The position numbers and the translations under genes are program-made. A stretch of DNA of 64,000 nt, taken from positions 19,902,001 through 19,966,000 of the forward strand of contig NW_027266275.1 of the NCBI RefSeq assembly GCF_022045235.1. The letters are read 5' to 3'. This DNA is from Haliotis cracherodii (taxonomy: Eukaryota). Each line of letters begins with the position of its first letter. Position 1 is the first letter of the stretch. This document shows, piece after piece, positions 1,160-37,763 of this stretch. Below the pieces are notes generated by a model, which was not told the origin of the DNA, did no database searches, and was given only the letters and a program-made list of their open reading frames with translations.

Positions 1160-4100
1160 TTAGAAGGGGTTAGCGACGACGGGGCCTCCAGGGTAGTACT
1201 GTGGGTATCCGCTATAGTGACATGTGCCATTGTAAAGGATCTTGAAGTCTGGCACTGAAACAAATATATGATGTAAAGAGTTACCAAAAAACAAACAGTT
1301 CACATTCGTTCTTTGCAAATTTGCAAATCATTGTTCACACTTCTCTGAATTTGTAATATAACACTGTCGGTAATTCCTACAAATTCTTATGTTTTTCATA
1401 TTTTACACGTGTCATCTGACTGATCCTTTAGTTCGAATGTGACACTGGTGCCCCAGTTGTTAAAGACACCGCAATTGGATGTGCGTGAATTAATATTCTC
1501 AGACTACTTTGATCGAATGCTAAAATGTGATCTTGACCTTGGTTTGTGAGTACAATGCTTGCGTTACATAAATGCCTACGGCCTATCTGATTTTAGGCGT
1601 TCCTCCCACTTAAAGGCGACATGGAGTGATAGGAATGAAAGGATGTTCAAGGTCGCAAACTTGTTCTCACGCCGTACTAAGATCATTTTGACGTTGAACT
1701 ATTTAGACAGATATACAGACAGACAGGTTTATTCAGTATTATGGCTATATAGCCTCAAGTACAATTGATACTAGTTCATAATATGATGCCACGTGCATAT
1801 ATAGAAATTACATCTTCTTGTATCTGATAGTAAAACATGCTTTTTATAAGTAGCCACTGAAAATATAAGATGTTTATTTTGTGAATTGATAATATTTATC
1901 ATTGACATTTCAGATTTATAGTCATGATTCAAAAAGGGGAGATATGTAGATCTTAACTTGGGATACCTGTTACACTTAAAGAAGATAATGCGAAGATGAA
2001 ACAGTTTCGTATATCGTAAATATATCTTTCACTCGCTGCTTAAATATTCCCATAAACACTTGAATGTTACCAATTTCCTGTAAATCCACATAAAAGAAAA
2101 CCCACATGTAAATAATAGATTTCTTACTTCAGATACCCAGTTATGTTTACCTATATCATCCAACTGGACGGATTAGTAGCTACGATAAGATTCCTTAACG
2201 CGAACAGCGATAGATATACACTGCCGTCAAACAAAATATGAAACTTGACCTAATCAATCCACGTGTACTAATGACGTAACGTTATCAATATATAATGTCA
2301 TGAACACGGGATATGGTTTTGTGAACATTGGCACAGCCGTATGACGTCACAGTGTTCCAACTGTTGAAGCAGCCTTTGAAATCGCAAATATACACATGTC
2401 TTATCAGTCTTACCAGTGGATGGGTTGCATCAAACGTACCTTTAAGGGAAGGGTTGATCTTGAATTTCTCAATGAATGAGTCGATGTATCTGCACAGTTC
2501 GCATTCACCCCTGAAGGTTCCATGGTTAGTACAAATTGACATTTGGCTCAGGGGACAGAATGTCTGGATGCTGCCACCGAGAGGTCCCTCCAGGGCGATG
2601 TCAGATGTGTTTACCGCAAACTTCTCACAGTTAGCCTGGATAGGATATATGATCATTGTGTCAATATCTGTTCACAGTTGCTCACAGTCTGATTCGTTCA
2701 TTCATTTTTGCAATATTCGTATTCATGAAGAAGGAGACGTAAGAAACACGTGCAGGTGTATGAAAAAAAGGAAGTTAGTTTGTCAACTATTTGACATTTC
2801 TAAATGGCCAAAAAGGGCCCCCATCCTATTTCGTCCTTTATAAGTTTGGCACCATTCTGATACTCATTCAGTTGCGCTGACTACTAAAGTATGCCTGCAC
2901 CCTGCATCCACTGTCCTATCTGGACATGTAAAAATGCAATTTGAAATCCGTCATATGCATTCTAGATTTTTCCGATCTGTACCCATGCGAATTTGGAATT
3001 AATGACTGCATTCAAATAAATAAAAGTGTCAAAACCCCTTCAATAATCACAAGAAATCTCTTCGAATCGATTGTATGATTCCGACTATATCATGAACATG
3101 TTTTTATGAATCACCATCAAACAGTGATGATACCAGCATATTGGAAGACTTACTTCCACAGGCGTGGGGCAGGAAGTGGTGTACGACACAATGGAGAGCC
3201 GGGTGCCGTTCTTGGAAGCAGCACACTGGGCCAGGGTGAAGCGACATTTATTTTCTGTTGTAAAACAATATCCATTGGTTATTCATTCGACATCGTCTTT
3301 GAAAACAGATGTGTATCTCAGTCTGTGCTTTGAAAAGCAAGAGCCAGATACAAATCTCTGTTCAGCAGTGAACGTTAATATTGCATCTTTAACGAAACCT
3401 ATGAAACGATCAAGATGATAATAATAATAATAATAATAGTGCCAGAATCACCCAAACCCTCTTTGCTGCATTTTTTATTTTAATCTGTAAATAATAATAA
3501 TAATGTTTCTTCATCTGAAACGTGGCAAGGTAGAAGAGGGAGGATCAGTCAGTTTACTTGGAGGAGTTATTAACCATCTCGTGGAAGGTCAGGCCTATAC
3601 GTACTTAGGGATGCAGATTAGGAACAAACTCCAGAATGCCCATATCAAGGACAAACTTCGAGTACAAATGTAGACTTAGGTAAATTTGGAGTTTTCTCAA
3701 CGATCGCAACAAAGTAAAAGCCACAAATACTTATGCTGTACCCGTCCTTTTGGTGTTGTTGATTGGACGAAACAAGAAATTCAGGGTATTGACACCCTCA
3801 CCCGATGAATCATGGCAGACAATACATCCAACCACCCTCGCTCTTTCCTCAATCGCTTATATTTATCATTCATTATGGGAAGACGTGGTTTGATTAATGT
3901 TGGGGGTCTTCATGATAGAATAGTTTATTTATTATTATTTGTCTGATGATCCTCTTGTGAAGCATGTCAAGACTCATGATGAAAACAAGGCATTCTACAG
4001 TTTTCTAAAACGAGCCAAGGGTGTGGGACATAATCTCAATGTCTGTGTTGATTTTGTTGATGGTTCTGTGCTGCTGGACGGTACAGAGAAGTGGGTGACA

Positions 4101-37623: not shown

Positions 37624-37763
37624 TCATTTGTCTATATTGCATAATTACATATGTTGTTTCATTCACAATAAAACTGTTTCTATCATCCACAGTTGCTGGT
37701 CACCAGATTCAATATGATGGAAGATGCCATGACTACTTCCCAGGTATTCAAGTTGGTAAATGA
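30045..37763 (+). CDS. Secreted three-domain Kazal-type protein, diverged copy C (212 aa, 6 coding exons)
   Basis: Exons 30045-30078, 31830-31916, 34432-34611, 35412-35512, 36461-36626, 37693-37763; same phases as A/B, with exons 1, 3 and 4 of identical length (34, 180, 101 nt); 639 nt open. Protein: MLGLLCLSFVVGALGAPSSSCPSACHTEYKPVCGSNGATYNNACELGIASCQSLLQGRPRIYESYSGRCSPQLDDPIRCDMICDDQDVKTPICASDGVVYDNKCRFNLAYCAAFKNGHLLSIVSNSNTCPGPREPDCEKYAFNTTDPLGSSHPCSSTLQPICTTDGPFDNECDFCSFLDGMMDRWPNFKVAGHQIQYDGRCHDYFPGIQVGK*. AATAAA at 37792-37797. Confidence 0.92.
30440..31190 (-). mobile_element. L2/CR1-group LINE 3' fragment in intron 1 of Kazal C
   Basis: AATLIQAYVISRLDYCNVLLYG, HITPVLKEIHWMPI, GDRTFQTAGPHLWS. 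Confidence 0.8.
31474..31633 (+). mobile_element. tRNA-derived SINE family 1
   Basis: A and B boxes; 11-bp TSD TCACAATATTA (31463-31473 and 31634-31644). Confidence 0.92.
32285..32580 (+). mobile_element. Penelope-like GIY-YIG endonuclease 3' fragment
   Basis: SAISDHI...INWENI...RKLTEAVQIHRHKPSINRDLG. Confidence 0.6.
33833..34094 (+). mobile_element. SINE family 2, representative copy. Other copies at about 5343-5552, 19494-19690, 24505-24681, 35635-35865, 36185-36420, 38285-38468, 40410-40665, 41265-41450, 42430-42803, 48935-49192, 49325-49497, 50450-50680, 61825-62063
   Basis: Consensus CCCGTGAAGATCCGGG...CTTGTCGTAAGAGGCGACTAA...GCTGGAATATTGCTGAGTGCGGCGTTAAAC(AACC/AAAC)n; TSD CATAGTTCTGC at 33821-33831 and 34095-34105. 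Confidence 0.88.
35013..35143. repeat. Minisatellite, about 5 x 26 bp (AAAACCCCAGCCCCCTCTCCCCACAT)
   Basis: Tandem units visible directly in intron 3 of Kazal C. Confidence 0.95.

Follow-up and report, generated by a model that had tools for sequence, protein, structure and literature searches.

Three clustered Haliotis cracherodii genes for predicted secreted Kazal proteins that combine two group 1 domains with an ovomucoid-type domain

What kind of protein is encoded by genes in which two repeats follow one cysteine spacing of the Kazal family and the third follows another? This question is raised by a locus of the abalone Haliotis cracherodii (RefSeq assembly GCF_022045235.1, contig NW_027266275.1, positions 19,902,001 to 19,966,000), a stretch of 64,000 nucleotides (nt) that is hereafter called the window and in which all positions are numbered. 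An earlier note, made from the letters of this stretch, had described three paralogous genes at 1160-37763 as a family of secreted, chimeric inhibitors composed of two invertebrate-type Kazal domains and an ovomucoid-like domain with large insertions. Here, the products of these genes, designated A, B, and C, are read as predicted secreted three-domain Kazal proteins that are likely to inhibit serine proteases in a substrate-like manner and through several heads, a reading to which a probability of roughly 0.6 is assigned.

Each gene comprises six coding exons separated by GT/AG introns of phases 1, 1, 1, 0, and 1, and its frame remains open to a stop codon that is followed within 35 nt by an AATAAA signal. 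Gene A runs from 7584 to 1160 and gene B from 23278 to 13772, both on the minus strand and both encoding 228 amino acids; gene C (30045 to 37763, plus strand, 212 amino acids) is inverted relative to them, is 47% identical to A at the protein level, and is separated from B by an assembly gap of 244 N at 29395-29638. Genes A and B constitute a segmental duplicate, with 78-90% identity over long blocks that include introns. Thus, both the common exon and phase plan of three intact paralogues and their local expansion, as originally proposed, were borne out. Exon 1 (A, 7551-7584, with the start codon; B, 23245-23278; C, 30045-30078, homologous to that of A and B; strands here and below as given for each gene) encodes an N-terminus that is hydrophobic and signal-like by hydropathy, and each mature protein contains 18 cysteines.

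Two of the three models coincide with existing records. Model A is identical throughout, N-terminus included, to the NCBI/UniRef entry 'ovomucoid-like [Haliotis cracherodii]' (P0005), which was found by searching with exon 5 of A, and model C equals P0006, an 'uncharacterized protein' of the same species, from exon 2 onward, the first exon of P0006 being different. Word-index homology searches returned only these two entries, which is weak evidence of absence; no catalogue record of gene B was returned by the homology searches, none of which used B as query, and the matches in the ESM Atlas were generic Kazal clusters, under 0.9. The splicing of gene C was compared with contigs from four public runs, which are presumed to derive from RNA and in which contig depth is no measure of expression. 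All four runs gave matches, and the lengths skipped by the contigs equal all five modelled introns (1751, 2515, 800, 948, and 1066 nt); among the matches listed, the first and second introns, and with the first the joint of exon 1 to exon 2, were each present in two of the four runs and the last three introns in all four. The contig joints agree with the modelled structure of gene C at every intron. Because the contig comparison covered gene C only, the model of gene B rests on its homology to A.

The first exon of P0006 in the NCBI model (30912-30930, plus strand) encodes no signal-like stretch, and no joint from it was present among the matches listed in contigs of the four runs. As the main form of gene C it was rejected, the spliced contigs favoring 30045-30078, and it is likely a mis-prediction or a minor form. 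The alternative exon sits within a decayed, repeat-like open frame on the opposite strand. A second spliced transcript, approximately 82% like gene C, was found in run X1, at a contig depth of 1634-2261 versus 387, and also in runs X3 and X10; together with a tblastn search of the window, it points to at least one further C-like paralogue that lies outside the window in the organisms of those runs.

The cysteine spacings reported for the cluster were reproduced in all three genes. In all six copies of domains 1 and 2, the cysteines follow C-x3-C-x6to9-C-x10-C-x6-C-x17-C, and the gaps of domain 3 are x23-x7-x9-x2-x28 in A and B and x16-x7-x9-x2-x25 in C; every one of the nine domains has six cysteines, and the interdomain linkers are 7-11 residues long. 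Exon 2 encodes Cys1-Cys3 of domain 1 (A, 6509-6589; B, 20932-21015; C, 31830-31916), exon 3 the second half of domain 1 with Cys4-Cys6 and the first half of domain 2 with Cys1-Cys3 (A, 5584-5763; B, 19713-19892; C, 34432-34611), and exon 4 the second half of domain 2 with Cys4-Cys6 (A, 3154-3254; B, 16898-16998; C, 35412-35512). Domain 3 is encoded from Cys1 to Cys5 by exon 5 (A, 2440-2635; B, 16115-16310; C, 36461-36626), and its Cys6 lies on exon 6 with the tail and the stop codon (A, 1160-1254, with a Pro/Gly/Tyr tail and AATAAA about 35 nt downstream; B, 13772-13863; C, 37693-37763, with AATAAA about 29 nt downstream). Exons 2 to 6 of gene C are all present in the spliced contigs. Over the six frames of the window, the group 1 pattern occurs six times, compared to zero times in 30 shuffles, and the classical core pattern occurs five times, compared to a shuffle mean of 0.1, two of the five being one duplicated intronic chance match.

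Judged by spacing, domains 1 and 2 are non-classical group 1 Kazal domains (6/6), a group defined by a shifted Cys1-Cys5 bridge (PMC3082530, in excerpt), and domain 3 is classical and ovomucoid-like (3/3) by its Cys4-x2-Cys5 and its long Cys1-Cys2 segment. The proposed mixture of group 1 and classical spacing in one protein with a signal-like N-terminus is thus upheld. The NECxxC element and DCxxY start that had been named as typical of classical Kazal domains are found, within domain 3, in C only; A and B have Gly in place of the Asn and an NCxxF start.

Profile matches, cysteine count, and predicted fold together place these proteins in the Kazal family (MEROPS I1; PF00050/PF07648). Against Pfam Kazal_2 (cut-off 22.8), P0005 scores 73.8 bits and P0006 64.9 bits, both are also well above the cut-off of Kazal_1, and the domain 3 exon of C alone reaches 21.9 bits with Kazal_1 (cut-off 21). 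The best sequence matches of domain 3 in the PDB are domains 1-2 of turkey ovomucoid (1yu6_C and 1z7k_B), with expectation values (E) of 3e-11 for the three-domain chain and 5e-5 for a single domain. An AlphaFold2 model of P0005, built with a 15-row alignment, has a mean predicted local distance difference test score (pLDDT) of 70.6 and a predicted template modeling score of 0.45, and predicts the order strand-strand-helix-strand in all three domains. Domains 1 and 2 of the model match OMTKY3, infestin, and the Kazal domain of IGFBP7 with Z of about 6 and a root-mean-square deviation of 1.4-2.1 A over 45-49 residues, so that model and fold match alike predict a Kazal fold there, with a central helix on a three-stranded sheet. 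In domain 3, where pLDDT is about 80 and the model is steered by the Kazal alignment, strands are predicted at residues 166-168, 171-173, and 202-206 and a 14-residue helix at 176-189; the core blocks have a pLDDT of 78-87, and the loop at 146-154 is under 50. A Kazal fold is likely for domain 3, by model and sequence. The disulfide pattern expected from alignment is 1-5, 2-4, and 3-6.

The insertions that had been claimed for domain 3 proved genuine in part. In 15 other classical domains that were fetched for comparison, the Cys1-Cys2 gap is 8-19 residues in 14 and 29 in one, and the Cys5-Cys6 gap is 16-17 residues in 11, with a range of 8-24; for invertebrate Kazal domains, Cys5-Cys6 is given as 9-21 residues (PMC4433142, in excerpt). 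Measured by these sequences, the true excess amounts to about +7 residues in the Cys1-Cys2 segment of A and B and to +8 to +11 residues in the Cys5-Cys6 segment of all three genes (25-28 residues there, as against about 17). A large Cys1-Cys2 insertion was rejected as a feature of gene C, because the gap of 16 residues in C equals that of turkey ovomucoid domain 2, which has an N-T-T sequon at a similar place; a gap of 16 is also present in three of the 15 other classical domains. The long Cys5-Cys6 segment holds for the three window genes and not for the family as a whole, since it measures 27 and 18 residues, respectively, in the two relatives P0007 and P0019 considered below. In the model, the Cys5-Cys6 excess likely extends the central helix of domain 3, and the extra Cys1-Cys2 residues likely form a flexible N-terminal loop. 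The helix after Cys5 is amphipathic in A (moment 0.77, reached by 31 of 2000 shuffles), whereas in C, where 420 of 2000 shuffles reach the observed value, it is not clearly so.

A profile of domain 3, searched over 1.84 billion representatives, returned 16 matches, which comprise two family members, nine other Kazal proteins, and five repeat proteins without a Kazal core (P0010, P0013, P0016, P0017, and P0021) that were excluded from alignments and tree. The two family members, P0007 (219 amino acids, E 6e-14) and P0019 (236 amino acids, E 5e-4), have the plan of the window proteins, namely, a signal-like peptide followed by two group 1 domains and a classical domain, at 38-50% identity, and each scores far above the Pfam Kazal_1/Kazal_2 cut-offs in three stretches. 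The Cys1-Cys2 gap of their domain 3 is 23 and 21 residues, respectively, and Cys4-x2-Cys5 is kept in both. A motif in this loop, T-S-D-[LI]-A-[IL]-E, is common to A, B, P0007, and P0019 and is mostly deleted in C. Since P0007 and P0019 share both the architecture and the motif, the family is, by sequence, wider than the cluster. Their motif and loop lengths also suggest that the long Cys1-Cys2 loop is likely ancestral in the family and that the long Cys5-Cys6 segment likely arose later.

How such proteins would act is suggested by family knowledge. The Cys2-Cys3 loop of Kazal inhibitors binds as a substrate, with P1 located two residues after Cys2 and the loop braced by an Asn before Cys4 (PMC4433142, PMC8131977, and PMC3004852, all in excerpt). 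Each abalone domain would likewise present its Cys2-Cys3 loop, with P1 in the specificity pocket of the protease; a 7-residue loop and the bracing Asn occur together in four of the nine window domains (domain 2 of A and of B, and domains 1 and 3 of C). Domain 2 is likely a constant head, because it ranks as the best-conserved domain in each of the four pairwise comparisons (27-35 of 49 residues identical), has an acidic P1 (Glu in four of the five proteins, A and B among them, and Asp, within an acidic 9-residue loop, in C), and retains the bracing Asn in all five. Such a head would fit enzymes of the subtilisin type, probably microbial ones; inhibition of subtilisin by P1-Glu Kazal domains is described, in excerpted sources, for domain 2 of horseshoe crab CrSPI-1 and for cone snail conkazal-M1.

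Domain 1, in contrast to this constant head, would be a variable head and, if the proteins block microbial proteases, the likely switch of specificity, its P1 over the five proteins being Thr (in A, on a 6-residue loop), Ser (in B), Thr (in C, on a canonical loop), Ala, and Gln. Domain 3 would provide an ovomucoid-type head, whose P1 Leu in A and B would suit elastase, chymotrypsin, or subtilisin; P1 is Ser in C, where the Asn is kept, and His in P0007 and P0019, which have Pro-His at P2-P1 of this domain and retain the Asn in all three of their domains. Because the bracing Asn is absent from domains 1 and 3 of A and B (in A it is replaced by Ser and Gly, respectively), these domains are likely to be weaker or short-lived inhibitors. 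The role of the proteins is likely to be the protection of a secretion against proteolysis, with mucus, haemolymph, gut, and egg coat as candidates.

Two side observations concern the domain 3 loop. In P0007 (154-162) and P0019 (179-187), three His residues lie within the 7-residue reactive loop, and they have been lost in the window genes; a metal- or pH-dependent function of these His-rich loops is conceivable. The counterpart of gene C in runs X1 and X10 carries Arg for Pro at P4' of domain 3 (window positions 36513-36537), and in X1 it also has Arg for His immediately before the reactive loop, such that these variants represent change beside the reactive site among close relatives.

Differences between A and B are unevenly distributed among the domains, with 16 of 53 residues differing in domain 1, 3 of 64 in domain 2, and 2 of 78 in domain 3 (domain 1 versus domains 2 and 3 combined, 5 of 142; Fisher p=2e-7). 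Non-synonymous change is below synonymous change over domains 2 and 3 together (p=0.01), as well as in domain 3 taken singly (2 non-synonymous changes over 182 sites versus 4 synonymous over 52; p=0.02). Domain 3 of A and B is under purifying selection despite the loss of its loop-bracing Asn. Positive selection on domain 1 was rejected (non-synonymous 0.15 versus synonymous 0.13 changes per site, p=0.8), leaving relaxed or mixed selection only.

Several findings weigh against a multi-headed inhibitor. The reactive loop has seven residues in seven of the nine window domains and is off-length in domain 1 of A and domain 2 of C, the Asn before Cys4 is present in five of the nine and missing from domains 1 and 3 of A and B, and the P4' Pro is absent from domain 3 of A and B. 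Inhibition is a prediction, and the class of target enzyme is deduced from P1 residues. Part of the contrast between the domains of A and B may be due to gene conversion, because the introns, too, are more alike near exons 4-5 (about 89% identity) than around exons 2-3 (78-85%). With respect to the fold of domain 3, the exon 5 of A alone scores 14.3 bits in Pfam, below the cut-off of 21. Fold searches hardly reached domain 3 and gave no match that covers it as a unit, and the P0005 model was guided by a Kazal-domain alignment, AlphaFold2 giving a pLDDT of 33 when run alignment-free; for these reasons, the fold of domain 3 is taken as likely rather than established. By fold as by sequence, the whole protein matched follistatin and agrin best, and the Kazal-like modules of these two are not known to inhibit proteases. 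Their module has ten cysteines, four of them in an EGF-like part that precedes the Kazal part; membership in that class was rejected, given six cysteines per repeat and no EGF-like part.

Other readings of the same data have to be considered. The proteins could act as two-point inhibitors in the manner of rhodniin, with one head in the active site and with the acidic domain 2 loop and the acidic Cys1-Cys2 motif of domain 3 bound to a basic exosite on a single, specific protease. In all five proteins, the P2-P1' stretch of the domain 2 loop is acidic, like that of rhodniin domain 2, the Pro-His of P0007 and P0019 recalls rhodniin domain 1, the motif has been kept in four proteins despite overall identities of 38-50%, and rhodniin is among the best small-protein matches. 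This scheme is nevertheless judged unlikely, considering that gene C is intact and spliced with most of the motif deleted, that the loop bearing the motif is the low-confidence part of the model (146-154), that the His has been lost from the window proteins, and that the protease target is only putative. A different proposal, which holds that the Kazal scaffold of A and B has been co-opted as a non-inhibitory binder or structural protein (for microbe recognition, as a peptide carrier, or as a component of mucus, shell, or egg coat), would explain why domain 3 is constrained in spite of the Asn loss in two of three domains and the P4' Pro loss. The amphipathic helix of A, which is without clear signal in C, would fit as well, and a precedent exists in silkworm SPINK7, described in an excerpted source as having three Kazal domains, being a weak inhibitor, and binding fungal glucan. 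Such co-option appears improbable, however, in that domain 2 retains every canonical feature and P0007 and P0019 retain Asn throughout; in addition, an abalone shell proteome, in excerpt, names no Kazal protein among shell-matrix inhibitors.

Far less credible than either is the notion that domain 3 is a separate cysteine-rich module without a Kazal fold, or that the models of A and B are wrong. The sub-threshold Pfam score of A exon 5, the lack of a fold match covering domain 3 as a unit, and the restriction of the contig comparison to gene C all speak for it. Against it stand the identity of P0005 to model A, the homologous domains of C, P0007, and P0019, which pass Kazal profiles with all six cysteines aligned, and the supported clade (98/97) formed by four domain 3 sequences. 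The preferred reading therefore remains that of secreted three-domain Kazal proteins, likely multi-headed and substrate-like.

The earlier note had called the proteins chimeric. In the window genes, domains 1 and 2 are each interrupted by a phase-1 intron at one and the same point between Cys3 and Cys4. Domain 3 lacks that intron; its own lie two codons 5' of Cys1 (phase 0) and between Cys5 and Cys6 (phase 1). In human SPINK1, position c.87 lies two codons before Cys1. The SPINK1 intron before Cys1 is of phase 0, as in domain 3, and the one after Cys5 is of phase 2, compared to phase 1 here (donors after c.87 and c.194; PMC3190254, in excerpt). In a tree of 38 domains over 58 columns, the four domain 3 sequences group together (98/97), apart from domains 1 and 2 (98/99), and an approximately unbiased (AU) test did not reject a topology with all twelve family domains as a single clade (p=0.90). 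Gene structure thus makes a separate origin of domain 3 plausible, but the sequences do not establish it. It is tempting, if doubtful, to combine these strands into an undescribed invertebrate Kazal family with an ovomucoid-type domain, derived either from an exon-shuffled ancient SPINK-like module or by re-evolution of classical spacing from a group 1 repeat. Members of such a family would inhibit at two points, binding an exosite through the acidic Cys1-Cys2 motif and the acidic domain 2, and domain 3 of A and B would be on its way to a non-inhibitory binding module under purifying selection.

Among known systems, avian ovomucoid (1yu6_C, 1z7k_B; classical Kazal/SPINK, MEROPS I1) resembles the abalone proteins in its three tandem domains, its Cys4-x2-Cys5, and a 16-residue Cys1-Cys2 segment as in C, but it consists of classical domains only, in contrast to the abalone Cys5-Cys6 segment of 25-28 residues, and the 23-residue Cys1-Cys2 segment and missing Asn of A and B. 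None of the group 1 inhibitors termite TFP4 (2n17), Anemonia elastase inhibitor (1y1b), and horseshoe crab CrSPI-1 (3qtl) has a domain of classical spacing. TFP4 shares Cys1-x3-Cys2 and Cys4-x6-Cys5 with abalone domains 1 and 2, and its disulfides are 4-37, 8-30, and 16-52 (PMC4433142, in excerpt). CrSPI-1, according to excerpted text, is likewise multi-headed, with unlike domains and a P1-Glu subtilisin head, but its two domains differ in disulfide number instead of spacing class. Rhodniin (1tbq), an insect thrombin inhibitor that binds an exosite according to an excerpted source, is a top small-protein match for domains 1 and 2, among others, and has an acidic second domain and a Pro-His loop like domain 3 of P0007 and P0019; unlike the abalone proteins, it consists of two domains, has group 2 spacing, and serves in blood feeding. 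Another abalone Kazal protein, Has-KPI, is reportedly a single peptide of about 5 kDa associated with female spawn in Haliotis asinina, said to have been described by Wang and colleagues in 2016; going by that description, its architecture is probably different.

No description of group 1 and classical spacing in one chain was found in the open-access literature, the search having left subscription journals and supplements outside its range. Most mollusc Kazal papers appear in subscription journals, and transcriptome or proteome tables for abalone may already include these genes. Novelty is thus partial: the architecture appears undescribed in open-access sources, but two of the three genes were already annotated by NCBI, one as 'ovomucoid-like'. 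With A and C catalogued under automatic names, the new part would be the joining of two group 1 domains to an ovomucoid-type domain with longer loops.

The surroundings of the genes give some indication of the history of the locus. Two exons of a gene with a NifU domain (minus strand, 44544-45789; Pfam PF01106, E 4e-15 and 5e-5), presumably NFU1, the mitochondrial Fe-S scaffold, provide a synteny marker for the cluster. The last intron of B contains a remnant of a Tc1/mariner-type transposase (14665-15381, plus strand; Pfam HTH_Tnp_Tc3_2, E 1e-14), which was likely inserted after the A/B duplication because it is absent from the matching intron of A. An element that by eye resembles a decayed non-LTR (long terminal repeat) retrotransposon lies in intron 3 of both A and B (about 3500-4900 and 17300-19100) and, being present in both copies, would be older than the duplication; the one piece of it that was scanned gave no Pfam match. 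Upstream of B, a block of about 1 kb is tandemly duplicated with 75% identity (26952-28974) and matches a block upstream of A (10358-11404). Since the 244 N gap follows this tandem block, a further copy could be hidden in it.

Multi-domain Kazal proteins with unlike domains, such as CrSPI-1 and rhodniin, and local expansions of their genes are already known. The classical spacing is familiar chiefly from pancreatic inhibitors and ovomucoids of vertebrates, the group 1 spacing from invertebrates. A chain that holds both spacings, with differing intron plans, is well suited for testing how the Cys1-Cys5 bridge has moved in the course of Kazal evolution. If the proteins block microbial proteases, the cluster would also provide candidate defence genes of abalone.

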